A stretch of DNA of 64,000 bases from Mustelus asterias (lineage: Eukaryota), in NCBI RefSeq assembly GCF_964213995.1, contig NC_135830.1, forward strand, positions 4,650,001 to 4,714,000, in the 5' to 3' direction. The notes under the pieces were generated by a model. The model saw only the letters and a program-made list of their open reading frames with translations, was not told the DNA's origin and ran no database searches. Shown in pieces: positions 1,668 to 64,000 of this stretch (position 1 is its first letter; every line of letters begins with the position of its first letter). The translations under genes were made by a program, and so were the position numbers.

Positions 1668-3050
1668 CAACACAACACACACATGACAGACACAAACACA
1701 CATAAATACACACATACAAAAACAGAAATACAGACAAAGAAATATACACAAAGAAAAACACAAACATGCACAAACATTGCACACATAAACAGACACACGA
1801 AAGCGAGCACATGCATACTAACACGCACAAATATTTATACAAACAAATATTGGCATACACACAAATACTCTAACAAAGAAATACGCAGATACATAAGCCT
1901 ATACAAAACAAGTACAAAAATAAACATATATATCCATGTAAATATGCGAATAAACGCACAATTTCACACAAGTGCAAACTCGTGTACACACAATCACACA
2001 CATTCACAGAAGCATAAAGGCGGACAGTCAGACACACAAACAGATGCACCGACACAAAGATACATACTTTCGTGCACACATCCAAGCAGGCACATAAACA
2101 CAGAAATACACATAGAAACACACATAGGCACAGAGTCACACACACGCAAACACACACACACGCACACACGAAAAACACATGCAAATCGACTCGTATTTAC
2201 AAGCGTGCACATGCACACAGACACACACAAGCCCTGACATTAGCACATCAGTTCACACACATACATTACTTACGCAAATGCGCATGTATACACACAAACG
2301 AACACTGAAATCATAGAATCCTAGACATGCACATTAAATACACACATGTGCATACAAACGCACAATTGTACACAGACAGAAACGCACACAAACACGTAAG
2401 CAGGCACACACAAACATATAAAATGCAGACGCGCATAATCACCAAGGACATGGAATGCAAATATAACCTTAATTAAAGAATATGGATTTAAAGATGTACA
2501 TGCTCACACACAAATATAGACACACAGGCGCACGTTAACAGAGTACACATGGACACACAAATACTTAGATCAACAGACGGCAAAATGTTCAAAGACACAC
2601 TTGCAGACGCAAACATTAACATGTCAATACACAAGAGAACACAAACACACACTTTAATACAAATGACGACATGAATATATTTCAAATCATGTTTATAAGA
2701 TCTAACAAAGCATGAAAACACTTTAAAGCACATACACACACACAAACAAATACTACTGCACTGACAGTTGGAAGACCAAAATCATATTAACACATATATT
2801 AATAGGCATGGACGCATAAACATGCATTAATATATACATTACTAAATAAACAGCGACTTGAAAACACAATAAATCACTCGTATATACACATTGACAGAGA
2901 AACGTAATGTACACACAGATACAGAGACATGAATTTGCAAATTAACACACATTGGCACAGGGTCACACATTAACACATACATCCATCAACGCAAACAAGT
3001 AATAATGCAAAGCGAGATGTGCATACGCACACAGACAAACTCAAACACAA
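1668..3050. repeat. Degenerate CA-rich low-complexity tract (intron 5' of the left IgH 3' exons)
   Basis: ACAC/ACAT-rich composition. The overlapping His/Thr and Cys/Val ORFs are repeat artefacts. Mirrored by the TG-rich tract at 63300-64000. Confidence 0.85.
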
Positions 3051-3599
3051 AAGTCAGGCTTTTGACGGAAGTATTATTCAAGTTACTTTTTAAAAGACAT
3101 ATTCTCCAACAATTGTTTCAATAACAAAATAACTCAACAAACACGCTGAAAAATATTCTCAATGAGAAACCGATTTAAGTTAATAATGTAACAAGTGTTT
3201 CCATCGCAGACAAACAAACATGATTGAAACTCACATTCGAGTTCTTAAATAGAAACTTTCACAGTTTACAAATAAACAGGTCAGAAATCTCCCTCGAAAC
3301 ACATCATGATATTCTCCAATAATAGGTAGCATGAAATTGTTGGAAGACGGACTGATACTGAAGAAAAGTTGCCATATTTTCCCATACAGTCTGTCCGAGG
3401 AATGTAAGAAAGAACATGTATGAAAATAGTTGCAGAGATCGGTTACTGAGTGTCACGAACTCAATAGTAGATATATATGAAAATCCAATTAGAAAATGAA
3501 TAGCTTAGGAAGGAGAAATGAGAATATACAAAGTAACATTTAGTTATGCTGGATAAATAAAGCAATCTAATTATATTTCCTCGTTTGTGACCCCCAGAG

Positions 3600-3726
3600 A
3601 CTCCAGCGACCGCATCTGGATTCAAAACAATGAAGATGACAACAGCAACATCTGGACAACCGCTTCAACATTCATAGTCCTGTGCTTCCTAAGCATTTTC
3701 TACAGCACTGCTGTCACTTGGTGGAG
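3600..3726 (+). CDS. IGH: Ig heavy chain TM1 exon (left gene), with a 1-nt deletion near its 3' end
   Basis: Acceptor cccccagag|, phase 1, reading (D)SSDRIWIQNNEDDNSNIWTTASTFIVLCFLSIFYSTAVT-WW, then donor |gtgaga. Matches the IgH TM signature (WTTASTFIVLF.LS..YS.AVT). 127 nt versus 128 nt for the paralog at 61666-61793. Confidence 0.93.
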
Positions 3727-3868
3727 GTGAGATGACTTAATTCACCCTCAGTTCAAACTGGTAGAAGGAAGTGGAAAAATCTCGAAATGTTTCAGTGATT
3801 AAAATACACATTGACAGAGATGCCCCGCATCATAACATCTGCTTCATTGTTGTATCTCTCTTTTACAG

Positions 3869-3877
3869 ATCAAGTGA
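3869..3877 (+). CDS. IGH: Ig heavy chain TM2 exon (IK-stop), left gene
   Basis: tatctctcttttacag|ATCAAGTGA lies 142 nt after the TM1 donor, identical to the paralog at 61528-61536. AATAAA at 3971-3976. Confidence 0.88.
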   Translation: MK

Positions 3878-4654
3878 CGGGTTGAATTTTGGACGCTGTA
3901 GATTTCCTTTAGCTAATTATTAAGATCACTTTATGATTGAAATACAATATCTGCTCTTGGTGACTCTAACAATAAAATTCTCTCAGTTTATCATTCTGCA
4001 CCTGTAACTGAGACAAGCGTGGTCGGTATTTCAGGTTTCAATATGAAATGTACGAGGTTTTTTTGTTGTAATCCAAACTGTAGTTGATAATTTCCCTGTC
4101 GTATAAATGTCATGTATGCATCAATGATTTTTCTCGTTCCTTATTCACAATTGTCCATTTACCGATTTGGTTAGCTCCTATTTAATCTTTCTTGTGTCTG
4201 TAACAGTTTTACATATATTGGACAGCTCGGAGCAGCTGTGTTCTATTCTCAATGTGAAGCTCAAGCTTTATGTTCACTTTTGTCAACTTTAAAACAAACT
4301 CTTCTGAAATTTTTTTTAAATCTTGAATGAAAAATCAACCAATTCTGGCTTTTCTTAACTCCTTTCGCCAAAGCCCATCGACAGAGCTCCATTTTCCCGA
4401 TAACACTGTTACCCCCTTTTCCCAGAAAGATATTTTCCCCCAGTCATGTCTGGGACGTGGCTGAACTCAAGGCTGTTCAGTGAAAGAGTCACTGTGCCAC
4501 CCAATGAATCATCTGTGTAAAGACACTTCATCTCTGCCTTTTTGATGATAAACTCCAGAGACAGAACGATTGAACAGCGAGGAGAACCTGGGTGATTTGA
4601 CACATGAACTGGTCGGTCACCTTCGAGTGTCAGGCAATTCTCAAAAGCAAAGGC

Positions 4655-4960
4655 TCTGCTTCATCAGAGGCCGATGCAGCACAGTATATGAAAGAATAAA
4701 TCTTTCTTTACACTGCCCCACCTAACACTGCAACGATCGCTGCAGCGTTGGGTATCAGAGTAAACCTGTCTCTCGATTGTCCGATTAAATACTTCAAAAG
4801 CAGGGGCGCCACCGGCAGGATAATAAAAAGCGGGGAGAACAGTGAGAACATCGGAGACTGGGATGTTTACCGCAAAGACATGGAATCGAGTACACATTTC
4901 CAAATGATTGCCAGCGTTTGGGGCCTATGTGATATACTCGGGCAAAACACGCAGCAATTC
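4655..4960 (-). pseudogene. Possible highly decayed V-set (antigen receptor V) relic
   Basis: Minus reads VLPEYIT*APNAGNHLEMC...YYPAGGAPAF...DRCSVRWGSVKKDLFFHI, then TAC TGT GCT GCA (YCAA) in another frame. Framework-like motifs are in the right order, but the conserved Trp and a clear RSS are missing. Confidence 0.3.
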
Positions 4961-5232
4961 CCAGATCCTGAGATTAATCTGAAGAAACAAATCAGCTGAA
5001 ATTATGAGAAGTGCTCCCGCATTATACGGCTTATTCTGATACAGATACTCCAGCTTCGCATTTTCTCTTAATGACACAAATAGATATGTTGTCCCCATGT
5101 TCTGTTGGAAACGCACACGCTCCAATTTCTGGTGAACATACAGTGACTGTCTGCTTCAAACTGTCCTTTTTGTATCAATTAACACTGTCCCTCTGATTCC
5201 TTTTTCGACAAAGCATTATCCCCAATAAACGC

Positions 5233-8200
5233 CATTCCCTCTGATAGCATCGCTCTGAACTCAATGAACAACATCCCAGGGAACCTTTCTCCCTACTCCA
5301 TTCCCTCTGACAGCATTGCCCTGAATTCATTGAGCATCATACCAGGGATCCTTCTCCCGGCTCTATTTCCTCTGACTCCATCCCCCTGAACTCACTGAGC
5401 ATCATCCCTGGAATCCTCTCCCCCTGATCCATTCCCTCTGAAACCATCGCCCTGAGCACATTGAACATCACCCCTGCGATCCTCTCTCCCGGCTCCATTC
5501 CTTCTGACAGCATCGCCTCTGAACTCATTGAGCATGATCCCAGGGATCCTCTCTCCCTCCTCCATTCCCTACGACAGCATCGCTCTGAACTCACTGAGCA
5601 TCACCCCAGAGATTTTCTCTCCCGGCTCCATTCCCTCTGACTCCATCCCCCTGAACTCACTGAACATGAACCCAGGGACCAACTCTCCCTGTTCCATTCC
5701 CTCTGGCAGCATCGCCCTGAACTCACTAAGCATCACCCCAGGGATCCTCTCTCCCTGCTCCACACCCTCCAATGGCATCGTGCTGAACTCACTGAACATC
5801 ACCCCAGGGATCCTTTCTCCCTGCTCCATTCCCTCTGACTCCATCCCCCTGAACTCATTGAGCATCACCCCAGGGATTCTCTCTCCCTTCTCCATCCCCT
5901 CGGACTCCTTCCCCCTGAACTCACTGAGCATCACCCGAGAGATCCTCTGTCCCTGCTTCGTCCCTCTGACTCCATCGCTCTGAACTTACTGAGCATCACC
6001 CCAAGGAAACTCTATCCCTGCTCCATTCCCTTTGACTCCATCCCCCCGAACTCACTGAGCATCACCCCAGTGACCCTGTCTCCCTGCTCCACACCCTCTG
6101 ATAGCACCGTCCTGAACTGACTGAACATCACCCCAGGGATCCTCCCTCCCTGCTCCACTCCCTTTGACTCCATCCCCTGAACCCACTCAGCATCACCCCA
6201 GGGATCCTGTCTCCCTGCTGCATTCTCTTTGATCCATACCTCTGAACTCACTGAACATCAAAGAACAAAGAACAAAGAACGGTACAGCACAGGAAACAGG
6301 TCCTTCGGCCCTCCAAGCCCGTGCCGCTCCTTGGTCCAACTAGACCAATCGTTTGTATCCCTCCATTCCCAGGCTGCTCATGTGACTATCCAGGTAAGTC
6401 TTAAACGATGTCAGCGTGCCTGCCTCCTCCACCCTACTTGGCAGCGCATTCCCGGCCCCTACCACCCTCTGTGTAAAAAACGCCCCTCTGATATCTGAGT
6501 TATACTTCGCCCCTCTCAGCTTGAGCCCGTGACCCCTCGTGATCGTCACCTCCGACCTGGGAAAAAGTTTCCCACTGTTCACCCTATCTATACCCTTCAT
6601 AATCTTGTACACCTCTATTAGATCTCCCCTCATTCTCCGTCTTTCCAAGGAGAACAACCCCAGTCTACCCAATCTCTCCTCATAGCTAAGACCCTCCATA
6701 CCAGGCAACATCCTGGTAAACCTTCTCTGTACTCTCTCTAACGCCTCCACGTCCTTCTGGTAGTGCGGCGACCAGAACTGGACGCAGAACTCCAAATGTG
6801 GCCTAACCAGCGTTCTATACAGCTGCATCATCAGACTCCAGCTTTTATACTCTATACCCCGTCCTATAAAGGCAAGCATACCATATGCCTTCTTCACCAC
6901 CTTCTCCAACTGTGTTGCCACCTTCAAAGATTTGTGGACTTGCACACCTAGGTCCCTCTGTGTTTCTATACTCCTGATGACTCTGCCATTTATTGTATAA
7001 CTCCTCCCTACATTATTTCTTCCCCCAGAGATCCTCTCTCACTGCTCCATTCCCTCTGATCCATCCCCCTGAACTCACTGAGCATCACCCCAGGGATCCT
7101 CCCTTCCTGCTACATTTCGTCTGACTCCATCACTCGGAACTCACTGAGCATCACCCCATGGACCCTGTCTCTCTGCTCCACACCGTCTGATAGCATCGTC
7201 CTGAACTCACTGAACATCACCCCAGGGATCCTTCATCCCTGCTCCATGCCCTCTGGCTCCATCCCCCTGAACTCACTGAGCATCACCCCAGGGACCCTCT
7301 CTCCCTGCTCCACACCCTATGATAGCATCGTCCTGAACTCACTGAACATCACGCCAGGGATCCGCTCTCCCTGCTCCATTCCCTCTGACTTCATCCCCTG
7401 AATTCATTGCGCATCACCCCACGGAACCTCCCTCTCTTTTCCATGCCCTCTGACTCCATCGTCCTGAACTCACTTAGCATCAATCCAGGGATCCTCTCTC
7501 CCTACTCCACTCCCTCTGACTTCATCCCCCTGAACTCACTGAACTTCACCGCAGGGAACCTCTCTCCCTGCTCCATTCCCTTTGACTCCATCCCCTGAAC
7601 TCACACAGCAGCACCCCAGGGATCCTGTTTCCCTGCTCCATTCCCTCTGATCCATCCCGCTGAGCTCACTGAACATCACCCCAGGGATTCTTCCTCCCTG
7701 CTCCATGCCCTCTGACTCCATCCCCCTGAACCTGAACTCACTGAGCATCACCCCAGGGACCCTCTCTCCCTGCTCCACACTCTCTCATGGCATCGTCCTG
7801 AACTCACTGAACATCACCCCAGGGATCCTCCCTTCCTGTTCCATGCCCTCTGACTCCATCGCCCTGAACTCACTGAGCATCAATCCATGGGTTCTCTCTC
7901 CCGGCTTCCTTCCCTCTGATAGCATCGCCCTGAACTCACTTTGCATCGCCCCATGGATCCTGTCTCCCTACTCCACTCCCTCTGACTCCATCCCCCTGAA
8001 CTCACTGAGCATCACCCCAGGGATCCTCTCTAACTGCTCCACTTCCACTAACTCCATCCCCCTGAACGCACTGAGCATCACCCCAGGGATCCTCTGAAAC
8101 TGCTCCACTTCGTCTGACTCCATCGCTCTGAACTCACTGAGCACCACCACATGGATCCTATCTCTCTGCTCCATTCCCTCTGTCTCCATCCCCCTGAACT

Positions 8201-9582
8201 CATTGAGCATCACCCCAGGGAATCTCTCTCCCTGCTCCATTCCCTTGGACTCCTTCCCCCTGAACTCACTGAGCATCACCCCAGGGATCCTCTGTCCCTG
8301 CTCCGTCCCTCTGACTCCATCGCTCGGAGCTCACTGAGCATCACGCCAGGGAAACTATATCGCTGCTCCATTCCCTTTGACCCCATCGCCCTGAACTCAC
8401 TCAGCATCACCCCAGGGATCCTCTCTCTCTGCTCCATTCCTTCTGAATCCATCCCCCTGAACTCACTGCGCATCACCCGAGGAATCCTCTCTCCCTGCTC
8501 CACAACCTCTGTTATCATCGTCCTGAACTCACTGAACATCGCCCCACGGATCCTCCCTCCCTGCTCCACTCCCTTTGATTCCATCCCCTGAACCCACACA
8601 GCATCACCCCAGTGATCCTGTCTCCCTGCTCCATTCCCTCTGATCCATCCCCCTGAACTCACTGAGCATCACTCCATGGATTCTTTCTCCTGGCCCGCTT
8701 CCCTCTGATAGCATCGCCCTGAACTCACTGAGCATCACCCCAGGGATCCTCTCTTCCTGCTACATTTCGACTGACTCCATCACCCTGAACTCAATGAGCA
8801 TCACCCCAGGGATCCTATCTTACTGCTCCACTTCGTCTGACTCCATGGCCCTGAACTTACTGAGCACCAGATCCTTTCTCTCCGCTCCATTCCCTCTGAC
8901 TCCATCCCCCTGAACTCACTGAGCATCACCCCAGGGATCCTCTGCCCCGGCTCCATTCCCTTTGATACCATCCCCCTGAAGTCACTGAACATCACCACAT
9001 GGGTCCTCCCTCCCAGTTCCATTCCCTCTGGCTCCATCCCCCTGAACTCACTGAGCATGACCCCAGGGATCCTCTCTTCCTGTTCCATTCCCTCTGACTC
9101 CATCCCCCTGAACTCACTGAGCATCATCCCAGGGATTCTCTCTCACTGCTCCATTCTCTCTGACTCCATCCCCTGAAATCACTCAACTTCACCCCAGGGA
9201 CCCTCTCTGCCTGCTCCATTTCCTCTGGCTGCATCCCCCTGAACGCACTGAACATCACCTCAGCGATCCTCTCTCCCTGCTCCATCCCCTCTGCGACCAT
9301 CGCCCTGAACCCACTGAACATCATCCCAGATATCCTCTCTCCCTCCTGTATCCCACCTGACAGCATCCCCTGAAATATCACCCGAGGGATCCTCTCTCCT
9401 TGCTCCATTCTCTGACACCATCCCCCTGAACTCATTGAGCATCACCCCAGGGATCCTCTCTCCCTGTTCCATTCCTATGACTGCATCCCCCTGAATTCAC
9501 TGAATATCACCCGAGGGACCATGTTTTCCTGCTTCATTCACTCTGATACCATCCCTCTGAACTCACTGAACATCACCCCAAG
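5233..9582. repeat. 66-bp tandem minisatellite (about 50 units), interrupted by a CR1 insertion
   Basis: Unit ctgaactcactgagcatcaccccagggatcctctctccctgctccattccctctgactccatcccc. ORF track shows a 22-aa period (LNSLSITPGILSPCSIPSDSIP). Confidence 0.96.
6261..7022 (-). mobile_element. 5'-truncated CR1 LINE (ORF2 C-terminus + 3' UTR) inserted in the minisatellite
   Basis: Uninterrupted ORF 6340..6945 (LYRTLVRPHLEFCVQFWSPH...LERVQRRFTRM). (GTTCTTT)n tail at ~6261-6280. Confidence 0.95.
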
Positions 9583-10034
9583 AATCTACCAGTGACTTTC
9601 AAAACTTCCCGCCGTGACCATTCTATCCACCTCCATCGCACCATGTTCTTCCGCAGGCTGTTGATGATATCAGCATCTCCTGAGGATTCTGGCCTGGCCC
9701 TTTGTATTTTCCAGCATTCTGCTACCTAAAAATGAGACCTTTTTCATTCTAAAATCCTGAAGTTCAGCTTCTAAATCAGAGTTGTTTACAAATCATATCA
9801 AGCTACTGGAGAACATAATTAACTGCCTGCAGGCAGGTTCAGAAGAACTCCCCTGAATTGGTAAAGTTGAAATTTAAACTTCCTTTCTGCTCGAATCTCT
9901 TTTACTCATCATGTCCACCGGCTCACGCAGCCATGGGCCGTTTTCCCTAACTCTGTTACTTTTACCTTCAGATGGTATCACTCCCCATCGCTATGTTCTT
10001 CCCCAGTCTCGGGAGATTCCACGTTGGTCAGGGC

Positions 10035-10263
10035 GACCGTTTGTTGATGAGGGTCTGCAACGAGCTGCCAGAGGTAGTAATAGTGCTGGGTACAATTTTG
10101 TCTTTTAAAAAGCATTTAGACAGTTACTGGGGCAAAATGGGTACAGAAGGATATGGGCCAAATGTGGACAATTCGGACTATCTTCGTGGTAAAAACTGGG
10201 CGGCATGGATAAGTTGGGCCGGAGGGCCTGTTTCCATGCTGTAAATCTCTGTGACTCTTTGAC
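10035..10263 (+). mobile_element. CR1 3' end fragment
   Basis: Reads NELPEVV...FKKHLDSY, followed by the CR1 3' UTR gggccggagggcctgtttccatgctgta. Confidence 0.75.
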
Positions 10264-12191: not shown

Positions 12192-14798
12192 CTATTGTTT
12201 AAAACCACCAGTGAGCATGGTGAAGGGACAGATCAGCAATTTCCTAAGCTCCTCTCTAAACTTGTTCTGGGCGACTGCGTAGATGAAGACGTTGTTGCAG
12301 GAACTGAGTGTCTGGAGCATGTTAGCTGCCTCTTGAAGGATATAGTCTGCGTTATTGAAATCCAGGCTGGTGAGGTAGCCTGCACTTGCGAGCCGTGCAT
12401 AGAGGAAATGTCCGACATAAGTGACCCACAGGAGAAGAAAGCTGAGTGAGATGGCGAAGAGCAGGACAATGGACCTCCTGCGGTTTTCCATCTCTGGGTC
12501 TCCATGGTTCTCGGTGCCGCGGAGTCTCCTACGGGCTCTGCTGGCCGCTAAGATGAGTCTTACAGTCAGGACGTTGAGTAGCAGGATGAGGAGGAATGGA
12601 AGAAACGGGGTTAAGATTTTGTCGAGCCAGTCATAGGCCAGCCAGGCTGGAGCTGTGTAGAAGGTGACCTTCATGTCGCAGAACCAGGGCACCCCGTCCA
12701 GGGTGTACAAGGGCTGGTAGACGAAGTAGTAAGGGAAGTTTTCCACACAGCTTAGGGCACAGACTATTCCTATAGCCCGCAATGCTGTTTTCTCGGTGCA
12801 GTATCTCGTCTTCAGGCTGTGACAGCAGATGGCCACGAAACGGTCGATGGTGAAAGCCACAGTCAGCCAAACTGACACATCCCGAGTCGCAAAAACCAGC
12901 AAGGCGCTGACTCTACACCCGGGTGTGGTGGATAGGACACTGTTAGAAAAGTAGATGCGGCCAATCCGATTGAGGATGACGGCAGTAATGATGACCAGGA
13001 AATCGCTCACCGCTATTGCCACCAGGTAGTAAGTGATGCACCGGGAGAGTCCACAACGTCCTCGGCATAAGATTACAATCGCCAACAAGTTGGCTGTGAG
13101 ATAAAAAGAGTGAACAGTTACAGAGCCAGAATCCAAACACCAGCTACTGACTCACCCAATCAGTTACCGACTCCATCCTGATCTTACCCCTTACCACCCC
13201 CAGACTCCAGCAGTTGGCATTCGTTCAATATCAAATGCTGACCTAAAAATGTGTCATTGTAGACAGCATTGCAACCCGAGCCCGCCACAAACTCTGTTTT
13301 CTGGTCAGCTCAAATTTAGCTCATTTCAAAAAATTGCTGCTGATGCCGTTATTCATGATAGGCCCAGTCCATCAATCAAGTCTATGCTCGCTGGTCTTCA
13401 TTGGTTCGCAGTCCTGCAATGTCTCCTTTCTCAGAATTTCATTCTTCTCATCTTGAATTCCTTCCATATTCTGGTCACTCCAGGTCCCTGTAACTTCCTG
13501 CAGCCAACTGAATTCACAGTTTACCTCCAACTCTGCCCCGTTGTGTGTTTATCCTGCCATTGCAGTTATGCCTTCAGCTGCCGAGGCCCTAATCTCTGTA
13601 AATTCTGTTTTCAACAGCTGTTTCTCGCCATCCTCCTTTAGGACGTTCATTTTACCCTGACTATTTGATCTACTTATGTCGTTCGGTTTCAAATGTCTTT
13701 GATAAAGTTCCCGCCATACGTACTGCAGTGGCTGAAGAAACAAGAACAACTATACCTTTCTTACTGGCAACTGTAGATAAGCAATAAATGTTGACCTGGC
13801 CACGGACACCCACAAAAATATCCAAAATAAAAGTCAACTGTACAAAACCGATCAGCACAAGAAAAACATGCATAGCAAATTTAAAATCTTGATTCTCCAT
13901 TCAGGGAACCCTACAGTGCAGAAGGAGGCCATTCAGCCCATCGAGTCTGCACTGACAACAATCCCACCCAGGCACTAACCCCATGAGCTCATGCATTTAC
14001 CCTAGCTACTCCCCCTGAAAATAAGAGGCAATTTAGCATGGCCAATCCACCTAACCTGCACATCTTTGGACTGTGGAAGGAAACCGGAGCATCCCCTTGA
14101 AGCCTTTCCTGAAATAATTCCTATAACCCCATTAACATTGAGGGCTGCCCAGTAATACATCAAGGCATTGTAACTATTAAGTCGATGCCGACGTCGTGCT
14201 GTAAATTCTTGTAATCACGATAAGATTTTAAAAAAATATTCAATTTCATTTAATTCAAAGAATGCAGTGTAATAGTTAATTCGCCGATGCTGTAATAAGA
14301 TCACTGCATGGAAATGCATGTTACTTCGCTGTTATGCGGTATTATTGCAAAATAGCATTCAGAACACCAGCGAATTTTACGACATCTAATGAAACTCAAA
14401 GTCGAAAATATAATAGATGCAAAGCCATCAATTATAATCCAAATTAGGCAACCCAATAAAATGCATTTCTAACTTTGTGTGCAGCACAGTAATTTGAATA
14501 ATGTCTTGGAATATTCCCTGATTCAATCAAATAAATCATAGAATTTACCATTACATTTTAAAATATCAAACAAGGCACCTATAGACGTATATTGGTACCC
14601 GGTTGAAGTCCCTTAAACTCATCATTGCTGAATAGTAGATACAATGAGCCCGTTCCTGAAAGAGAAGAGACACAATTTATTGTTCTTTTTAAACAACATA
14701 AATAACTTATTTGTGATCCATCACTTACCAGGGGCACCGATAGAAGCAAGAACAGGATAACAAATGGCATAGAAGAGGCCTTTCGCTGGTCCGTGCAT
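12192..14798 (-). CDS. Two-exon class A GPCR of the GPR139/GPR142-related chondrichthyan family, 323 aa: join(complement 14729..14798, 12192..13093)
   Basis: Exon 1 encodes MHGPAKGLFYAICYPVLASIGAP and ends in CCTG|gtaagt. Exon 2 starts tttttatctcacag|CCAAC (phase 1; ANLLAIVILCRGRCGLSRCITYYLVAIA) and is open to the stop. 70+902=972 nt. Seven hydrophobic segments, WLTVAFTIDRFVAIC (DRY to DRF), TM3/ECL2 Cys pair, and TM7 SSCNNVFIY. Confidence 0.92.
13905..14093 (-). mobile_element. HE1-type SINE 3' half in the GPCR intron
   Basis: accctacagtgcagaaggaggccattcagcccatcgag...ggaaaccggagc. Confidence 0.85.
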
Positions 14799-15222
14799 CG
14801 TCTCTCAGAAACTAGACGGTTCTCAGAAGCTTAATGCTTAGCTCTGGGACACATTCAATGAGGCCCTCATTTATTCTGAATCAGAATCTCTTGGGGGCAA
14901 TTAAGTAACAAACTGCAGCTTACTTACGTTTCGGTAAATAAACACATCAACTCACCATTTCACGTCTTCCACTTGCCACATTGGCAGCGTGGACGATTCC
15001 TTTCTTATAGATGGCCGGAATTTATGCGCCTGAATGTTTCACACACATAATTTTTAAAAAGTTTCAAGTTTAACGAACAAATAATTCTTCAATTTCTTCC
15101 ATTTCAAAATAGTTGACTTTGTTTAAAAGCTGGCGATGGTCAATCTCAAATAACCACAATGGGATCTGTATTACCCGGTGACTTGATTCCTATTTTTGGT
15201 CAGTTATGTTTGCAATTCAGTG

Positions 15223-18813: not shown

Positions 18814-18885
18814 GGCGGTATAACTCAGTGATCGAGCATTTGACTGCAAATCAAGAGGCCTTCGGCTCAAATCCGAGTGCCCTCG
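18814..18885 (+). pseudogene. tRNA-Cys(GCA) pseudogene
   Basis: ggcggtataactcagtgatcgagcatttgactgcaaatcaagagg...tcaaatccgagtgccc. Confidence 0.8.
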
Positions 18886-50420: not shown

Positions 50421-50494
50421 CGCCACAGGGTGGTTTCGAACCACCACCCTATCGGTTAAGAGCCGAACACGCTGACTAATTGCGACACAGAGAC
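50421..50494 (-). pseudogene. tRNA-Asn-derived pseudogene (anticodon reads CTT)
   Basis: Minus gtctctgtgtcgcaattagtcagcgtgttcggctCTTaaccgatagggtggtggttcgaaaccaccctgtggcg. Flank is paralogous to 26842-27050. Confidence 0.8.
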
Positions 50495-54251: not shown

Positions 54252-55138
54252 TGACTAAGTGCACAGTAATACATCCCGGAGTCTGTCAGCTCTGTTTTAG
54301 AAACTTTCAGCGGTACGGTGCGGGTTGTATCATTGAGCTCCGCTGACAAACGGTACCCTGGGATCTCCCTGTGTTACCAGTCTATTTATTTGTCTGCAGC
54401 AGATACTCCATGGATGCGCTGGGATACTGACGGTACCAGAATAGATAAAGGTTGTTGTTTGTAGCTTTGTAATTACAGAGCAACCTAACATCATCTCCTT
54501 CAGTGACGGTGACTGTAGCCGTTGTCTGTGAAACAGAATCTCCTCTGGAAGGTCCTGTAAGAATCCAAAGGAATGTTAAATTAAACATTGCGACTACACC
54601 ACGTTTCCCCAGAATTTGCGGGTTATCGGCAAGAATAATCTCACAGAGAAATCAGAGAGCAAAACAAAACATATGTCTCTCAGTTCAGTGGCTGGAATGG
54701 GAAGGTGTTTGTGGCGATTAAGTAAAACTTCCACCATAAACATTCTGCTCTTTCTAACGGGATTAGTTCCTCGACTTCAGTCCCTGTTACTGAAAACTGC
54801 TCACGGTCTGTCTGTTTGAAGTGTGATGTTTACCAAAGTCATTCACTGGTATCAGAGGAGCTTGAATATGAGCCCAACTCATTCTCTATCAATCCCTGGG
54901 GGAAATGTGCCCAATCCCAACAGTGTTCAATGTTGAGACCAGCGAGATCCAGATAACTTTTCGATTTTGTGATCAATCCATTCCCTGATCACCCACTCTC
55001 TCCCCCTTTGCATTGAGCGAACCGCCCGGCAGAATACAGTGTGTGGTAATGGTGTGTAACACAGAGTGAGCAACTTGTGAACTTACCGATTAACAGAGCT
55101 GCCGCTGTGAGGAATAAATACAGAGTAACAAGACACAT
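54252..55138 (-). pseudogene. TCR V-alpha/delta pseudogene: leader 55087-55138, V exon 54252-54554
   Basis: Leader MCLVTLYLFLTAAALLI(G)|gtaagt. V exon reads GDSVSQTTATVTVTEGDDVRLLCNYKATNNNLYLFWYRQYPSASMEYLLQTNK*, then a frameshift, then RLSAELNDTTRTVPLKVSKTELTDSGMYYCALS. Confidence 0.92.
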
Positions 55139-55254
55139 GTTTGCAGAGCTCGCGGCGAACTTGACCAAAACGGGTTGAAGCTGAATTTGTTTCGGTCAAG
55201 AGTTGGGAAAAGGTTGAGTCATATCCGTCTCCCTGTTGATTGGTTTACTGTTGA

Positions 55255-55275: not shown

Positions 55276-58226
55276 AATCGGCATCAATCTCCGATGTTCT
55301 TCAGTTCAACCAATGACCTCACAGTTCATTTATCTGCAATTCATTCTATTGGCGGAGGGACGAAAGGAACAAAGTGAATTTGGTCATCCCACGACAGGGG
55401 ATGACTTTCCTCTTCAACCGTAATTTCAGGAACCGACCGGTCCCCTGAGTCCTGATGGCTCTGTTCTGACATGGAGAATGACAATATCCATCCTCAGAGC
55501 AACATAACAAGCAGTTTGTTATTAATCATGTTTGGGATAGCAGCTGCAGTGCGGGGGGGGGGGGGGGGGGGTGGGCGGGGGGAATGTTTTTTTTTGTTAA
55601 AACATCTAGCTCATAAGAAGTGACAGAACAATGAATGGTCTGAGATATTTCAATATGATGTTCCCTCAATTTGTAATTTTGCAGTCTGTGAAATCCTCTT
55701 TCAGAGTGGAAATATAGCGTACCTCCCCATTGGACTGCTGATCCAATCAGTGCCAAACAGAGAAAAGTAGCAAAGATCAATATCTCCAATGAAATCTCCA
55801 AGAAAACAGCACAGGAGAGACGGGTCAGAGTGCGAACAGCACAGGAAAACTGAGTGGGCCTACCATAGGCAGTATGGTACAGCTACGATTTATCTGCAAG
55901 GAGCTGAACTCAATAACAATGTCAAATTGGGAATACGATAACTTTGCCTCTCTATATGAGAGGCAGCTGAATGTCCATTCCATACTGCGGACCAGGATTC
56001 TTGCACCAGGAGTATCGGGTTAGTAAGTGATTCAATACAAAGCCAAATCCTCATCAGTGATGTGGATGGAAAATGGGACCGAATAGCTGTGCAGGCAGAT
56101 TGACGAGGTTCTGAATTAATGTACAAGGTAACAGAAAAAGCTTTAATGTTTACGTTAAAGCCTGGGAAAGGAAATGTGCACAATTTCCATAAATCAGCAG
56201 ACAAGGACAGTCTGGAACAAATAGGCAGAGAAGGGCATCGAAAACGAAAATAAAAGGTGCTGAAGTATCTCAGATCGATTTGTCAATCTTATTTCAATTG
56301 CAAATGTAAGTTCCGACCATCAACTAATTCTGACCACTGTGGAAAACACAGCAGCCAATTTAGACTCAGCGTGTCATTTCATTCTGAGCACCTCAGTTCG
56401 GTCTCTCATTTACCTCCTTTGATATTCGGAGATGAACTCCTGTGTCACAGCGGCTAGCGTCTGTGCCTCTGAGGCAGAAACTTCGGCTTGAATTCCAAAG
56501 CCTGTACCTGATAGCCAAGGATATTTATTGGAGCCTCAGCCATTACTTTCCATATCTCCAGACAATAACATGGATGAAAAAGTCAAATTTGCCGCGGCAA
56601 CTCGGACTGCTCCGCTGGAGTGGTTTGAACGGAGGACAGGTTGTTGCAGGAGCACAGAGCCCTATTCCAATTCGGGCTGTGGTGTATTTCAAACCTGCCT
56701 GCTTGTCCTTTGCGCTGCGCAGTTCATCACGCTTTGGGTAGGACCTGCTTCTTTGCAGAGAACTCCAGAAGAATGTATAAGAGGAACAATTTCAGTTTGC
56801 CTAATCCAGTTGCATCGTTATCCCTCAACCCTGTCATTATTCTGGTGTGGTGCCTCCGCACTTTTTCCAATGTCATTACCCTCGCTCTAATCGTCTTCCC
56901 CAAGATTGCACACAGAGCCCTTGGTTTCGTTAAACGATGATGTATGCGGGTTTGTACGACTTTCTGGCTTGACAGGAAAAACAACGAGGACAGTGTATAA
57001 TTAGCTCCAATTTAAATCACTGGAAGACATTGTCTGACATTTCTGCTTTGATATGTAACCTAATACATCAGAAATCCACTCAAAAGTCCCATTTTTAACC
57101 AAACTGTACTGAATCCACCAGAGGACGTCTCCACGATCGAGCCTGGCCATCGGAATGTCCCGTGAGACCAACGCTAAAGCCAATGGGGATGGTAGTCTGA
57201 GTGAGGTCACAATGGGCCTGCGTTGTGTGGGTGGAGATAAGCTGAACAGAGTCTGAGTTTACTATGTCAACAACCCCTTTCCCTGAGTTGACCGCAACAT
57301 CATACCCTGGTTTTAAAGGAATAAACAATCAATGAGAAGCCGAAAAGGAAGCTAAGCTGGTAGATTGATACAACTGGGAGGCATGATTTAGCAAAATCTT
57401 CCTTATATTAATTTAACCACTGAGCTTTTCCACATAATCTACGCCTGTGCACCCGGGTACCAGAATAAACAATGAAACTTCATTGCAGTATCATGCGTTC
57501 AGTCTCAGCCTTGACTCCTGCCTTAACATCGGAGGACAGACAGTGACCGAAGTTCCGTGGTTGTAAAAAGTAAGACCGTGAGGAATTTAATTTTCTGATT
57601 CAATCTATGCTTGGGCACTGAAAGAAAATGTGAAACACGTTTATTCACATTTCCCTGTGTGGTGAGATGAGTGTGAGTGAGTGGAAAAACAGAACTAATG
57701 TCCTTATAAGGGGAAGGTGTTCCGGTGTTTTTGTGTTATTATAAGACAGAAACTCTGGACTGAGAAAGATGTCAGAAAACATTAAAGCTGAAAAATGATG
57801 CTCCAAACGACAAAGACCATTGGTTCATTTTAAAAATAATTGTCTGCGAGCAAACACAACATTCTTATCAAATAGACTCTCTGCACCGCTGTGATCAACT
57901 GGACTGAGAAACTGAAGGATTGATGGGGAAGGAACTATACAATAATTCAGACATTGGGAAAAACATTAAAAAACAAAATATAAATTGGGGAATCACACTT
58001 TAATTTGAGACCTTTTTCATATAGATGTGAGTTGAATCAACTAGTTTAATTAATTACGTGACTCTCAGCTCCTTGTTGAGCCTTGACTTGAAATTATAAA
58101 ATGACATTGTGACGCTCACAGTTAATGTTTCAGATTATCAGTGTGAGAGCGCACTCTGCTGATCGCTAACTTGAACTCCCAGTCTGGGGTTTTTGTACGG
58201 CATCAGCGACATCTCTGCAGCAGTAG

Positions 58227-58650
58227 CTTCATGGCACAAAAATTCACGGCGCTGTCGGAGGGAAGAGCTCCAGCGATATTTAAGGGGGCTGTGTTGTTTC
58301 CTTTGTGAAAAGCAGCCGATAACCTGTCTGGGGAATCTCGAGGTGTTTTGATATCCCCCCAGCTGTATATCTTTATCAAATATCTCGGAGCCTCCCCGTG
58401 ATGCTGGATGTACCAGAAGAGAACAGTTGTCGAGTATTTACAGTCCAATATTACGCCCTGTCCTTCTAGTACCGGTAATTCAGATTGATTCTGGAACACC
58501 GAATCTTCACCATTTGTCCCTGCAACAAAACACGGAATGTATCAAATAATTGGGAATGAAGATATTACAGGAAACACACACTGCCCATTTAAGTAATGAC
58601 TTACCGGTCAGAAAGACAATTATTATCAGAATTGAAGCTAGGGAACTCAT
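58227..58650 (-). pseudogene. TCR V-alpha/delta segment, open frame but defective RSS: leader 58605-58650, V exon ~58227-58519
   Basis: Leader MSSLASILIIIVFLT(G)|gtaagt, then an 85-nt intron, then EDSVFQNQSELPVLEGQGVILDCKYSTTVLFWYIQHHGEAPRYLI...DRLSAAFHKGNNTAPLNIAGALPSDSAVNFCAMK. Nonamer ACAAAAACC at 58188-58196, but the heptamer lacks CAC. Confidence 0.88.
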
Positions 58651-59561
58651 GGTGTCTGGATTGCAGTCCGAATACATTAACATAATAGTTGAAATCTGCA
58701 GCCGTTCCAGCCTGAGGCAAAAAGAGTAAACTCCAATCAGGAACAGGCTTCACATCAGCAGAACTTGAAGGGGCGTTTCCCGAGGAGAGGATTGGATGCT
58801 TTCTCAGAACTAGTGATAGGTGGGCGCCAATCAGTGTTAATTCTGGAGCGATTTGTTCCTTTCGGATTCTCCTTGTTTTTTTATCAGCGTCTTTTTTCTT
58901 CTTCATCTGTTTCTCTATTTTGCGGTTTCTCTGTGCGTTGAACCCCTTCTTCCTGTCCCTGACCCTCTCTCGCGCGCTCTCTATTTCTCCCGATTTCTCT
59001 AAGAATTCAGAATACAATTTCTCCCAATTTCCCGCTCTAATGAATTCACCAAAAAATAGGTGATTATTTAATGGCAGAATCTATAGTCGATGAAATATAA
59101 TAACATCAATTGAGACACGACATTGAAATTGAAGCAGTTACCTTTAAATCAAAGAGTATGTCGGAAATGTGCCAATTAGCTTTCATACCTTCATCGTCTC
59201 TATGAGCGGTATTTCAAACCCAACAACGGGGCACTGTGAAAAGCAACATCCGAAATGCAATCAGGAATTCCAGAAACAGAAATAAAAATAACTTTAGTGA
59301 TTGATTTCATTTATGTTTATTTATTAGTGTCACAAGTAGGCTTACATTAACGCTGCAACGAAGTTACTGTGAAAATCCCCAAGTCGCCACATTCCGGCGC
59401 CTGCTCGGTTACACTGAGGGAGAATTTAGCATGGCCAATTCACTTACCATAATATAACATAACACGTGATTAGCAAAGGGTGATTTCCGAGAGCCGCTTG
59501 TCCCTCTGGAATACAAGACCAGCAGCTGAACCCGCTGCGGTAAACACACAAACATGGTGAG

Positions 59562-59580
59562 GCAGCGCCATCTGGTGGAG
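59562..59580 (-). promoter_or_regulatory. Candidate CTCF site
   Basis: Minus ctCCACCAGATGGCGCTGc, a near-consensus CTCF core. Confidence 0.7.
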
Positions 59581-61049
59581 ATCTATGGAAATGTCCATTC
59601 CTGGCAAAATATTTGAATTCTCAAGTTTCTGAAATATGTTATTCAAAAGATAGAGGTAGAGATTATTTTCCATTATTGGGATACTGGATGGTGCAGCAGC
59701 TCCTTTATTGAAGGGCCTTGGATTCATTCAACATCCAAACAGGACTGGTGGAAATCCTGTCAGTAAAAGTGGGTGGCGTGGCATGACGGGGCATTTGACC
59801 TCGTACACAGGGCGGTAAGGTAGCAATTTAAGCAGCAATTCAACAAATTCCAAGTTGCTTAATTTGTAATTCAATATTTATTGATAGGTCATAGATCAGC
59901 CGTGTTATATGCATTGTTTATTTCTGACCATCAATTCATGAACTTAGCTCAGTTTCGAATGAACAACATGGATTCAGCCTTTGACAGACCAGGATATATC
60001 TGGGTCATGTGGTGCTGAATGCACCCATCATAAATTTCTGTTTTAATTTTAATTTAACCCATTGCCAGATGTTATGGTTCGTGCTTTAGCGTTGGAATAT
60101 ATGCATATAAGCATCTTTCGATCTGCTTCGTTCTTTGTTTATGTGTCCATGATTGTGAGAGTGTGTTACGTGCCCATGTGTCAATAGAAATGTACGGGAA
60201 AAAAATGTTGAAGCGCATTGTTTTGTCACCACAATCATATGAATACCAAATGTAATGGAAATACCAATTTTTAATTCGTGAGAAGAGAATGCAGATTGGT
60301 TGGAAAATGGGCTCTGATTATTAGAGATGTTCCATGGAGAATGTACCAGCTAAATGTTGACTGACAGTTAACTGCAAAGTTTTGTTTAAATTCAAACCAG
60401 GCACCTTCAGGTGTTCCTGCTGACCTTGTCGTCAATCTGCTTCTGCGAATTTGAATGAAGAGACAGAGGTGGAGGTGCATTTTCACTGATGGGACACTGG
60501 GTGGCGCAGCGAATACTTCACTGAAGTATCCAGGGTTCGCTCAAAATCGAAACAGGATTCGTAAGAAACCCTGTCAGTTAAAAGCGACACAGTGGGAAAG
60601 GGATATTTGATATGAAAAATAAAGCGATATGAGAAAACCGCGAATCTAGGCAGTTATCAATGTTACTCCATTTATACCCTCAATCTTTATTAACAATTAC
60701 ACGACATTTTACAGAAATGTTTATTTTAAAGTTGACTCCAGTTATGTATGTCAACTGAACAAAATATCGACGAAACATAGGGAAAAAAATAATATCTACA
60801 TAAAAGGCAGTGAACAAATATCAATAAGAAATAACTAAACTGCAGATTAATTCGAACAACATTGAATCTCCAAGATTCAATTATATGTATGCCACGATTT
60901 TCTCATTCAGTTAAAACAGAAAATGAAATACAGTTTACGTTGCTATCTCTTAACTGAAGTCGATTTAAATCACTAAAATAACACAATATATTTCCACAGC
61001 ACCGCTATATTGATAAACAGATGGAGAAAATTTGTCCGAAATCCATAAA

Positions 61050-61058
61050 TCACTTGAC
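61050..61058 (-). CDS. IGH: Second (distal) IgH TM2 exon, VK-stop
   Basis: ttttttttttcctattttacag|GTCAAGTGA. The ~135 nt upstream are paralogous to the TM1-TM2 intron. Confidence 0.75.
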   Translation of the reverse strand, partial: VK

Positions 61059-61195
61059 CTGTAAAATAGGAAAAAAAAAAGCAAACTTTTCATGTGTTTG
61101 AAGCATTTAGCTAAAGGTTGTTTATCAATTAAGAATTGTGGAGATGTTTCAAACCGCTTCCGTCAGTTAGAAATGTGAATAGATTGAATCATCAA

Positions 61196-61475
61196 GGCGG
61201 CACGGTGGCACAGCGTTAGCACTGCTGCTTCACTGCACCAAGGGACTCGGGTTCAATTCCAGGCTCGGGTGCCTGTCTGTGTGGAATTTGCACGTTCTCC
61301 CCGTGACTGCATGGGTTTCCTCCCATAGTCCAAGGGTGTGCAGATTAGGTGGATTGGACATGGTTAGTGCAGGTTAGGGGAATTAAATACGGGGATCGGG
61401 ATGGGTAAATGCTCTATTGGTAAATCGGAGCAGACTCAATGGGCTGAATTATCTCTTTGAATTGGTGCTATACAG
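61196..61475 (+). mobile_element. HE1-type SINE between the two TM2 exons
   Basis: ggcggcacggtggcacagcgttagcactgctgcttcac...gggttcaattcc. Confidence 0.85.
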
Positions 61476-61527
61476 AGATCTTAATAATCAGCTCAGGGAA
61501 ATCAACAGCGTCCAAAGATTCAACCGA

Positions 61528-61536
61528 TCACTTGAT
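61528..61536 (-). CDS. IGH: Proximal IgH TM2 exon, IK-stop
   Basis: tatctctcttttacag|ATCAAGTGA, 129 nt after the TM1 donor. Confidence 0.88.
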   Translation of the reverse strand: MK

Positions 61537-61665
61537 CTGTAAAAGAGAGATAAAATATTGAAGCAAATGTTTATGATCTGAGACATTAATGTTAGAGTTT
61601 TTAATCAATAAAACATTTCGCCATTTTTCTCTCAGTTTGAAATGTGAGTGGATTGGTCATCTCAC

Positions 61666-61793
61666 CTTCATCAGAGTGACTGCAGCGCTGTAGGACATGC
61701 TCAGGAAGAACAGGACGATGAATGTGGAAGCGGTTGTCCAGATGTTGCCGTTATAATCCACATTGTCTTCAATCCAGCTTGTGTTCGTGGAAT
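61666..61793 (-). CDS. IGH: Ig heavy chain TM1 exon (right gene), intact
   Basis: ctccatag|(D)STNTSWIEDNVDYNGNIWTTASTFIVLFFLSMSYSAAVTLMK|gtgaga; phase 1/0, 128 nt. Confidence 0.95.
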
Positions 61794-62276
61794 CTATGGA
61801 GTTGGCGAGGAGGAGACCGTTAACTCATTTGTTAATGCATGATGTCATACTGGTATTATCTTTTACCTTCGTTTTTAAATTGATTTTCTCACTTTTATAT
61901 TCGTTCAGGTATTATTTTGCTCTATAATGTCATCTTTAAAGTTTGTTTGTTAATAATCTAATCAGTTAACGCAACTTAAAATATATATCTGTCGTTAACT
62001 GATCATTCTCAGCAATATATCTATGTTACTAACTGCACCTCCGAGTTTATTTCATGTTCTATGTTTGAAAATATTATGCATTTTCTTCATTGTCAGACGC
62101 TCGTTTAGTCTGCTTTAATTTTGTACCGACTATCAGCAAATATATTCTGAAGACCAAGCGAGGGAAGTTAACTGAGCTGAGTTGAATAAATTAGGTCAAC
62201 ATTCTCTCGAATGTTGAAGAATGTGAGAAAATCCTCGTTGAAACACCAAACAATCGGAAGGGGTTTGACAGGGCAG

Positions 62277-62437
62277 TCACTGTTTCTGCTGGTCGGCGAA
62301 AGCAAAACAAAAAACGGGGATGCAGTCTTTTGATGTGTGAGCGTCGTTTAGGACTGAGATGAGGAGACTTTCTTTCAATCGTGGTTTTGAATCTTGGGAA
62401 TTCTTCACATTCGTTGGTTGGGGTAGGGTAGATGTAT
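62277..62437 (-). CDS. Candidate separate secretory-tail exon of the right IgH gene
   Basis: aaag|(D)TSTLPQPTNVKNSQDSKPRLKESLLISVLNDAHTSKDCIPVFCFAFADQQKQ*, phase 1. AATAAA at 62046-62051 (minus) lies before TM1. A decayed homolog sits at 3097-3223. The polypyrimidine tract is weak. Confidence 0.4.
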
Positions 62438-63299
62438 CTTTGATTTTTTTCAAGAAATCAAAGGATATGAGGAATGGATGGGAAATTGCAGTGAGACCCA
62501 ATATCCGACATTATTCTATTGAATGCTGAAGAATTGCACATTGCGTCTATGGTCTAGTCCTGAAAGAAAGTCTTATGTTCTTACGATTTACAATTTTTGA
62601 GAAAAATTCAGGTTACTACTGTGAAATATTATCCATGATGATCAGATGAGTTATATTTTTGGTTCGTTTGTGTTGGGCAAATTATTAATTTATCTAGGTT
62701 TCTGAAGGAAAACATGGTTCCGTCTTTGACAGACCAACATGTATTAGAATCAGGTTTTACAGAATGTGCCCATTAAAAATACACTTTGAATTAAATGCCA
62801 CCTATAGCCTGACGTTCCTGACTGCTTGGGCTTTAGTGTTTGCAATCGTAGGACTACAAAATGTGAAGGGGATTACAAGTTATTTTTAATAAGAAGAGAG
62901 TGTTGATTGGTTGGCAAATGGACTCCGATGGGTAGAGATTTTCCAAGGTGAATGTAGTAGCTAAATGTTGACTCAATGTTAACTACCATGTTTTGTTTAA
63001 ATTCAAACCAGGCAGCTTGACTCTGAGAAATGAACCTGAGCACGGCTGTCGCCTATTTTGTTCAGAGGAAAGACACAATGTGTGTACATGTTCTTTCTGT
63101 CTCAATAGAACAGGGCTCTGAGTTTCAATGTATGCAACTTTATGGCGTTAGGTGCGCCACACTCACCACTATCATTAATTGATATATGTTTGGTGGTCGT
63201 GTGAATGTCCTGCTGAGTGCAAGATGTCTGTGACATATCTCTTTGTTCAGTGATGCTCAAGTTCTGTTCTAACATACGGGAGTATGAAAGATAATGTAC

Positions 63300-64000
63300 A
63301 TGTTTATCTGAAAATGAGGTATATTATGTGCATTATTTGCCTTCATTAATAAGTGTACTTTGTAGTTATTCATCGCTATGCATGCACTTGTGTGCTAATG
63401 TGTCAGTTTTTATGTGTGCTTATCATTGTTAGCAAGTGAGTGTTTATCGGGTGCGTTTATGTATCAATGTCTATGCTTCTGTATTAATGTACCTAATGAG
63501 GTGGGCTGATATGATCATGTGTTAGTGCTTATGGTTATGGAACAATTTGTGTATCGCTGTGTAAGTGAGCATCTTAATGTTTCTGTCTTCATGTGTGCGC
63601 TTGATATTCTATGTACATGAATGTCTATATGTACGTGTTGGTGAATGTTAATGTATCTCGGTGTGCTAGGAGGTATCTTTACTTGTGTTTGTTTTCTTGT
63701 ATCTGCGAGCATGCTCATGTTTGTGTCTCTGTTTGGGTCTGTGAATGTATTAATACATGGTGGCTTGTATTTGCGAATGCCCGCATTTCTTGATGTACGT
63801 GCATGTGTGTCCATGTCTGTGTCACTTTATATGACAGTTTTAACATGAATGTGTTTGAATTCATGAGAGGGGATGGGTTATTAATATTATCGGCTGTGTT
63901 TGCTCCTGAGTCTGAGTGTGTTTGTGGAGATGTATTTGTCGGTGTATCTGTCTATTTGTATTCCTGTATCAGCATTTCTATTATTCCTGCAAGTTTAGGC
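63300..64000. repeat. Degenerate TG-rich low-complexity tract (CA-rich on the sense strand of the right IgH gene)
   Basis: Composition; positional mirror of 1668-3050. Confidence 0.75.

Follow-up and report, generated by a model that had tools for sequence, protein, structure and literature searches.

The window analysed here, 64 kb of the Mustelus asterias contig NC_135830.1 (C71; other C-numbers denote other contigs of the same assembly), holds an orphan IgM tail and a GPCR exon facing a VDJ-joined IgM gene, which is trailed by two damaged TCR V segments. The right part of the window has a near-identical copy elsewhere, in which one of these segments, V54, is fused to a TCR-delta D-J-C cluster, probably through germline RAG activity; we give this reading as a whole a probability of roughly two in three. 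The novelty lies in this inverted twin and its fusion to a TCR-delta D segment; IgM remnants among TCR V segments are already described in the available part of PMC12227049. The features are as follows (extended coordinates continue the numbering outside the window).

about -2317 to -1930 (extended coordinates), +, CH4 of the IgM remnant, immediately outside the left edge of the window
1668..3599, +, intron between CH4 and TM1 of the orphan IgM remnant, CA-rich
3600..3726, +, TM1 exon of the remnant, 127 nt
3869..3877, +, TM2 exon (IK-stop) of the remnant
5232..9580, no strand, 66-bp minisatellite, 15.6 and 39.1 copies, interrupted by a LINE-like fragment
12192..13093, -, main exon, open, of a class A GPCR resembling GPR139 (7tm_1, E 3e-22; best PDB match GPR139)
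18814..18885, +, tRNA-like copy, Cys by relaxed ARAGORN, 42.9 bits
26768..26841, -, tRNA-Asn(GTT), 58.9 bits
34871..34944, +, tRNA-Thr(AGT), 56.2 bits
42907..42980, +, tRNA-Gln(CTG), 45.5 bits, mismatched acceptor and T stems
50421..50494, -, tRNA-Lys(CTT), 43.7 bits
54213..54251, -, RSS of V54, 23-bp spacer, two mismatches to the consensus, missing from the twin
54252..54554, -, V54, TCR alpha/delta-type V pseudogene, TAG at 54384 and a frameshift
58188..58650, -, V58, leader-bearing TCR alpha/delta-type V, frame open
61050..61058, -, another TM2-like exon (VK-stop), following a SINE-like repeat
61528..61536, -, TM2 exon of the joined IgM gene
61666..61793, -, TM1 exon, in phase, 128 nt
61794..64000, -, CH4-TM1 intron; the gene runs on to the right of the window
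65316-64987 (extended coordinates), -, CH4
67076-66768 (extended coordinates), -, CH3
70705-70394 (extended coordinates), -, CH2
72188-71889 (extended coordinates), -, CH1
78594-78223 (extended coordinates), -, joined VDJ
78778-78721 (extended coordinates), -, leader

The window thus contains two IgH TM1-TM2 tails that converge, a pair of TCR alpha/delta-type V segments, the GPR139-like exon and five tRNA-like copies, much as the preliminary description had it. The CA-rich tract it placed ahead of TM1 in both tails was recovered (A+C 0.70 and 0.66, control 0.51) and corresponds to the CH4-TM1 intron; the coding "exon-like block" it placed before TM1 lies within that intron and has no support as an exon. 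Its view of a hybrid IgH/TCR alpha-delta neighbourhood, with IgH 3' ends among TCR V genes, was right, and the layout is published (text and Table S1 of PMC12227049, as far as available). The window is part of the shark IgH/TCR alpha-delta gene complex and its layout is ordinary for sharks: the elasmobranch AgRC (Flajnik et al. 2025, PMC12227049) is described, in the available text, as IgM miniclusters with interleaved TCR alpha/delta V exons in both orientations, and Table S1 carries labels such as "IgM (missing V)", "IgM pseudo?" and "IgM (gj)". C71 likewise has IgH clusters among TCR alpha/delta V segments, together with TCR-delta C. The window and the 100 kb on either side yielded no D, J or TCR C.

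Only one of the "two IgH genes" of the preliminary description is a gene. On the minus strand, four mu-type CH exons and TM1/TM2 follow a joined VDJ, giving 605 codons with no internal stop and canonical sites at every splice; the VDJ is a single exon without RSS, and the twin has the same VDJ junction. As predicted from this structure, it is an open and complete germline-joined VDJ-CH1-4 IgM gene with a membrane form of 605 residues and a fixed V region. Identical residues to Triakis IgM number 53/99 (CH1), 73/103 (CH2), 67/102 (CH3) and 94/109 (CH4), against 25-44 for CH1-CH4 compared with a 990-aa chain, which we take from its length to be IgW. TM splicing starts from a donor inside CH4 (GT present, phases fit), and the TM region shares 23/42 residues with the horn shark membrane form. 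The secretory tail stops after 13 codons in both window and twin, short of a full tailpiece with its penultimate cysteine. With nurse shark IgM1gj (protein P0013; PMC5192425, seen in part) the gene shares a joined VDJ and a CH1 without the extra cysteine that ordinary IgM has near the CH1 start. It differs in retaining CH2, in its TM exons and truncated secretory tail, and in a V region nearer to ordinary Triakis IgM (79/123) than to IgM1gj (64/123). Identity with IgM1gj was rejected because CH2 is present and open although the VDJ is fully joined.

On the plus strand, a search of 200 kb found no CH1-3, J or VH; upstream of the tail there is only a broken CH4 with an in-frame TGA and the TM-splicing donor GT replaced by TT. 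Its TM1, one base shorter than that of the joined gene, is out of phase with TM2. The tail is a dead, orphan IgM pseudogene; the possibility raised earlier, that neither TM1 would have CH exons upstream, applies to half of the pair, with a broken CH4 only on the plus strand and the full CH1-4 on the minus strand. The stretch from CH4 through TM and minisatellite to GPCR is collinear with C71:11.867-11.887 Mb at about 80% identity, and the start of the minisatellite is common to both. By this collinearity, the GPCR evidently accompanies the IgM remnant as an older duplicated cassette. It belongs to a large family in the M. asterias genome; a motif scan of 13.1-30 kb found no first exon.

The preliminary description derived the two tails from an inverted duplication, and they do converge and are homologous (TM blocks 79.1% alike over 345 nt, CH4 86.6%). 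A model in which inverted duplication of one IgH gene around the V/GPCR/tRNA block yielded a purpose-built hybrid IgH/TCR locus is nevertheless hardly credible. In the 450 nt before TM1 the tails are 45% alike, whereas the plus tail is 92-93% alike to four other IgM copies, and a local alignment of the intron stretch (score 151) did not exceed the best of 200 shuffles (153). The intron motif quoted as evidence of homology does occur in both tails; it is not special to the pair, as one other IgM copy carries the plus-strand motif letter for letter. The proposed TM phylogeny was run as a tree of 17 CH4+TM IgM copies (5 of 22 were left out for want of TM in their stretch, and further genome copies lie outside the sample). 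It rejected the tails as sisters (52.8 lnL cost, AU p 7.7e-6), and on these alignments they are assigned to different IgM subfamilies, not to an inverted duplicate pair. Inverted self-matches above 150 nt in the window comprise the TM block and scattered pairs with no common axis, and neither this lack of a collinear mirror, nor the dead plus copy, nor the missing D, J and TCR C fits such a model.

Four N blocks of 152-361 nt, three of them inside GA/CA simple repeat, and the highly repetitive nature of the locus leave some room for a mis-join that would make the tail-to-tail layout unreal. They cannot be called assembly gaps; other stretches sampled from the assembly contain no N. Such a mis-join is improbable: the paralog at C71:11.87 Mb keeps the order from CH4 to GPCR up to window position 14,998, across the first N block, the other three blocks fall within 900 nt of simple repeat, and 16 to 54 kb is uninterrupted and free of N.

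Both TCR-type V segments, recognised as V-set domains on the minus strand (Pfam E 6.6e-10 and 4.6e-6), are damaged. V58, 9 nt shorter than most paralogs, finds mostly TCR alpha V domains as best PDB matches, and its RSS heptamer begins with TAC, not CAC, so that it is likely unable to rearrange. At V54 the window parts from its inverted twin, located 6.3 Mb away on C71 and matching from position 54,256 onward with 98.9% identity (390 mismatches in 35,547 nt). The homology ends exactly at the V54 coding end, and from there, at C71:11,023,768, the twin continues into a TCR-delta D-J-C cluster. At the junction V54 lacks 4 nt and D 3-4 nt, with one shared and no added base, and a 23-spacer RSS (V54) is paired with a 12-spacer RSS (D) in keeping with the 12/23 rule; both coding ends broken, such a pair and small deletions are the features of a RAG V(D)J coding joint. 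The partner comprises a D with 12- and 23-RSS, J segments with 12-RSS and a TCR C with hinge and TM, with NAR-TCR V in paralogs, as in a TCR-delta locus; it is labelled delta because of the D segments and the NAR-TCR context, while database names read "alpha chain-like". The window form is taken as ancestral because a large majority of the 40 scored matches extend across V54 into its RSS flank; only the twin breaks off, at query 345.

Unjoined D segments with both RSS were found on C90, C110, C111 and C115, and, as a point against our reading, the first 661 nt of the twin's D side are 100% identical to the unjoined C90. No identical unjoined parent was seen on either side among the top candidates scored (V side 98.9%, D side 98.7-99.3%); such parents may have escaped genome searches that score top candidates only. 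The far end of the twin was checked for a RAG break and showed none, with identity declining from 99% to 85-89% near 5.09 Mb, and a reciprocal signal joint with V54's own RSS was absent from all 34 candidates scored in the assembly. The contig runs X1-X4 (at most three samples of one study, 27-45% of words) drop rare forms and cover V54 in 5-19 of 30 bins at 97%. None of their contigs among those listed crosses the twin junction (1,363 further pieces lie outside this set), and contigs of X1-X3 enter D with 30 letters unlike the twin. One V54-type signal joint was present in X3 (101-nt contig, depth 4.8, two differences in 71 nt); contigs carrying adapter have the same depth, and the joint may therefore stem from a single somatic molecule that was amplified.

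The V54-D joint, seen once in one assembly, is accompanied by others. Delta D segments are joined in 7 of 19 cases in the assembly. C436, C119 and C96 have one common V-D junction with flanks 2-5% different, which indicates that this join was inherited. At C138:217,716, an IgM VH-D1 is fused to D-delta, and exact 12/23 signal joints with partners other than V54 occur at C110:113,696 and C71:14,376,803. A delta-type C exon has matches at 19 places (83-100%), some of them likely haplotigs, and C71 itself carries many IgM CH4, TCR V and three delta-type C exons.

The main alternative is that the V54-D joint is a somatic lymphocyte rearrangement assembled into one haplotype, the twin being the other allele, misplaced by 6 Mb in scaffolding; the window anatomy would be unchanged. 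The twin's identity, 98.9% near the IgM gene and 99.1-99.8% at 5.05-5.08 Mb, is in the allelic range, and many contigs repeat C71 at or near 100%, so that retained haplotigs are likely. The joint is a singleton, and the low-depth signal joint in X3 fits somatic use of the V family with D. It is rare, however, for a unique somatic molecule to support a contig extending about 400 kb to one side and more than 100 kb to the other, as is the case here. The sampled stretches around the twin contain no N gap, the three diverged copies share their junction at the same kind of D, and the search for an identical unjoined parent among top-scoring candidates was negative. We regard the somatic origin as unlikely and a germline origin of the joint as likely. 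Under the germline reading, IgM cassettes that were born, lost and shuffled would have built up the window, carrying the GPCR, the tRNA copies and the V exons along. In one chromosome lineage, the stray V54 RSS would then have been used by RAG against a delta D, through either inversion or deletion; the window would keep the unrearranged state and the twin (other haplotype or recent paralog) the rearranged state. The join would have moved about 400 kb, including the joined IgM gene, beside a TCR-delta constant region; as V54 is already a pseudogene in both window and twin, it likely makes no receptor.

More tentatively, at slightly under even odds, RAG may act in the germline between separate Ig and TCR loci, inverting or moving blocks of hundreds of kb, leaving signal joints in chromosomes and building the inherited chimeric C138 gene (intact IgM leader-VH-D1 to TCR-delta D-J-C). 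If so, and with TCR-delta in roughly ten or more miniclusters, a route to antibody-like VH-delta T-cell receptors would be caught in the act. The joints bear on how VH segments were recruited to TCR-delta in sharks, frogs, birds and platypus, and on whether germline remodelling by RAG continues in vertebrates outside single Ig clusters; with parents known on both sides and exact coordinates they are directly testable. If they are somatic, lymphocyte rearrangements and mixed haplotypes are built into the assembly's Ig/TCR chromosome, with consequences for gene counts taken from it.

Trans-rearrangement of VH to TCR-delta is known from lymphocyte transcripts. The C138 joint resembles it in that Ig and TCR segments of neighbouring loci recombine; somatic joining of IgM/IgW VH to TCR-delta and TAILV are cited in the available text of PMC12227049, whereas the joints described here stand in the genome assembly itself and are possibly inherited. 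That text treats TCR alpha/delta as a translocon, with few TCR constant-region entries per species in its table, and in the part available coding or signal joints are unreported apart from the great white shark label "NARTCR V(gj)V(gi)V"; here, by contrast, delta-type C occurs at many places, with coding and signal joints in assembled DNA. RAG-type trimmed coding joints in inherited DNA, like that of the minus-strand gene, are known from germline-joined shark Ig genes (Lee et al. 2000, PMC2193156, in part). Joined genes are called peculiar to Ig genes of cartilaginous fish in the seen part of a review (PMC5192425); the joins reported here differ in involving TCR-delta D and in linking separate loci. 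Germline recombination between clusters was proposed as a hypothesis in a commentary (PMC2193153, in part). In the literature covered, which is incomplete, neither germline joints between loci nor multiple copies of TCR-delta in a shark were reported; germline TCR joins or several C-delta genes may be described in the main papers on the nurse shark TCR-delta locus.

Among minor features, an RSS-like site inside the GPCR exon (12,858, spacer 24) was dismissed as chance. The tRNA group of the preliminary description was confirmed, with four copies called by ARAGORN and five by Rfam at 42.9-58.9 bits.

The TM1-TM2 series described earlier for both strands was found on each of them, converging, on a contig (C71) of 20.4 Mb in a genome of 3.68 Gb, of which the window covers C71:4,650,001-4,714,000. 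Proteins labelled Mustelus asterias match a TCR constant exon of C71 at 83-100%, which points to a houndshark or a near relative. The TM blocks of the + and - tails are 79.1% identical over 345 nt and their CH4 exons 86.6%. The following features lie between them.

Features between the converging IgM tails
Between the tails; minisatellite with a 66-bp unit
Between the tails; GPCR exon, open, closest solved structure GPR139
Between the tails; five tRNA-like copies (42.9-58.9 bits)
Between the tails; LINE and SINE debris
54252..54554, - strand; V54, a TCR alpha/delta-type V segment with a stop and a frameshift, yet a good 23-RSS
58188..58650, - strand; V58, a TCR alpha/delta-type V segment with an open frame, its heptamer starting with TAC

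D, J and TCR C segments were not found within the window or in 100 kb to each side. The interleaving of IgM remnants with TCR V segments matches the published shark layout: PMC12227049 locates TCR alpha/delta V exons between IgH clusters, and its Table S1 has IgM entries that lack a V or are marked pseudo, in both orientations and amid TCR V segments. The architecture of the window is already known; what goes beyond it is a recombinase scar in a near-identical copy of the window's right part, together with its companion joints elsewhere in the genome. The preliminary description was largely correct in its observation, and the anatomy given here is very probably right. Clusters of tRNA adjoin IgM genes in the window (16.8-51 kb, 13 calls at a relaxed threshold), at 95-138 kb in coordinates extended into the flank and at C71:10.96-10.99 Mb, and several of the clustered copies, which have stem mismatches, may be pseudogenes. 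At -38.8 to -35.8 kb (extended coordinates), a NAR-TCR supporting-type V is interrupted by a LINE, and behind it stand two or three 23-RSS in tandem, spaced by 61 nt; this arrangement was noted at C71:11,087,714-836 as well.

Only one of the two IgH genes proposed in the preliminary description is complete. The - tail is the end of a gene whose leader, VDJ, CH1-CH4, TM1 and TM2 exons can be spliced in frame, giving 605 codons without a stop; the VDJ forms a single exon without RSS. Its domains are those of IgM, judged by identity to the Triakis, horn shark and nurse shark chains. An assignment to the nurse shark IgM1gj was rejected, since CH2 is retained. CH1 contains the two domain cysteines only and the secretory tail ends early, and the predicted product is therefore likely membrane-bound, with a fixed V region. 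Further joined VDJ exons of IgM are present at C166:442,792 and C71:9,509,075 (9.51 Mb); their junctions differ, and one is open while the other is frameshifted in J. A protein filed under Aeromonas veronii (P0010) shows 88% identity to shark IgM CH4 and is probably host contamination.

The + tail is an orphan. A lack of CH exons upstream of either TM1 had been named as grounds for rejecting the preliminary reading; this holds by half, for the + tail, where only a broken CH4 precedes TM1, and not for the - tail, where CH1-CH4 are present. The single IgM CH4 left of the window carries an in-frame TGA, the donor for TM splicing is TT, and TM1 is one base short. On the same strand, CH1-3, J and VH were not found in 200 kb when shark chains of IgM and related types served as tblastn queries. 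Remnant, minisatellite and GPCR form a cassette that recurs at C71:11.867-11.887 Mb with unchanged order and approximately 80% identity, and CH3 was absent from the 5 kb sampled there. The GPCR is a passenger; its family is large, all 131 scored members among 5,816 candidates matching at 56% or more.

An inverted duplication had been thought to have produced both tails. A phylogeny was built on CH4+TM of 17 copies, with topology tests of 20,000 replicates; it did not group the tails. The + remnant falls into one group with five further copies, at a split support of 99, the - gene with C127, C166 and its twin, an inverted near-identical copy at about 11.0 Mb on C71. A constraint uniting both tails was rejected (delta lnL 52.8, AU p 7.7e-6, SH p 1e-4), and on this sample of copies local inverted duplication is thus refuted as their origin. 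The intron motif taken as a mark of this pair is instead a feature of the family. Most likely, birth and death of cassettes would have led to the tail-to-tail layout by chance.

The twin was detected with VDJ, CH4 and V58 as queries, each of which gave a second near-identical match, in opposite orientation, at C71:11.0 Mb. The inverted match begins at window position 54,256 and extends rightwards at 98.9%; identity is 99.1-99.8% at 5.05-5.08 Mb and drops to paralog level near 5.09 Mb, giving a length of about 385-405 kb (sampled at the two ends). Private to the twin are an additional V between V58 and V54 and, within the VDJ, an inverted duplicate, 151 nt long, of the twin's leader region. The latter piece (C71:10,998,853-10,999,005) comprises 5' UTR, leader and intron start, replaces 16 nt and leaves the frame open. 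At 56,328-56,385 the window is without the twin's 1.5-kb piece bearing the extra V pseudogene and has a short stretch resembling the V54 3' flank instead. The twin is without the 950-nt insert of the CH3-CH4 intron (extended 65,569-66,519), which looks like a repeat arranged as a near-perfect hairpin.

The match between window and twin ends five bases short of the V54 heptamer. In the twin, V54 is followed by a D remnant of 11 nt with a 23-RSS, by seven J-like segments (a number taken from C90 and C110, whose copies are colinear), and then by a TCR C exon, hinge and TM exon. The unjoined D, present on C90, C110, C111 and C115, consists of 15 nt flanked by a 12-RSS and a 23-RSS; the joint at C71:11,023,768 lacks 4 nt of V and 3-4 of D, with one shared base and zero added. 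As defined in the relevant passage of PMC2193153, this junction is a RAG coding joint. Judged from sequence, the window represents the original, unrearranged state, since V54 paralogs continue through the RSS and its flank. Among assembled contigs from four runs, a 101-nt contig of run X3 contains a V54-type 23-RSS fused to the 12-RSS of the D; it shows that the V family of V54 recombines with this D, in germ or somatic cells.

We infer a germline origin of the V54-D joint with a probability of about 0.7. Most likely, RAG in germ cells would have linked V54 with a delta D in a single lineage, later than the tail-to-tail layout arose. If the assembly places V54 (- strand, 4.70 Mb) and D (+ strand, 11.02 Mb) correctly, joining them would amount to an inversion, and a scaffold combining the left break of an unrearranged haplotype with the right break of a rearranged one would yield exactly the mirror observed. 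A deletion within a duplicated copy fits as well. That Ig genes of sharks can be joined in the germline is established (PMC2193156, PMC2193153 and PMC5192425), and entries in Table S1 of PMC12227049 include a joined catshark IgM and the label of a joined NAR-TCR V.

Matches to the D-J unit and to the C exon were found at 19 places each, 18 of them common to both; some are likely haplotigs. Multiple copies of the TCR-delta-type C exon exist, at 83-100% identity; three of them lie on C71, and nearly all have a D-J array of their own. The D flank was read at all 19 places, of which 12 are unjoined and seven joined (twin, C436, C119, C96, C401, C850 and C138). C436, C119 and C96 have one V-D junction in common, with flanks 95-98% alike, and this junction cannot be somatic because three diverged copies carry it; for the joints occurring once, a germline origin is suggested. 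The joined V segments of these three, C401 and C850 are NAR-TCR supporting V segments, the junctions of C401 and C850 being separate. At C138:217,716, an IgM leader-VH-RSS-D1 is fused at the 3' end of D1 to a TCR-delta D, followed by J and C-delta. Its IgM 5' half (14 kb, leader and VH open) is 94.6-96.4% identical to C71:5.10 Mb. Over 389 nt it shares an identical sequence with four unjoined IgM loci, in which D1 is followed by a 22-spacer RSS, and the delta side has its best match at 96-97% (40 scored of 83 candidates). This fusion is an Ig-to-TCR coding joint standing in assembled DNA. Two D-upstream blocks terminate in exact head-to-head 12/23 signal joints, located at C110:113,696 and C71:14,376,803 behind IgH-like V segments, with 23-RSS partners different from that of V54.
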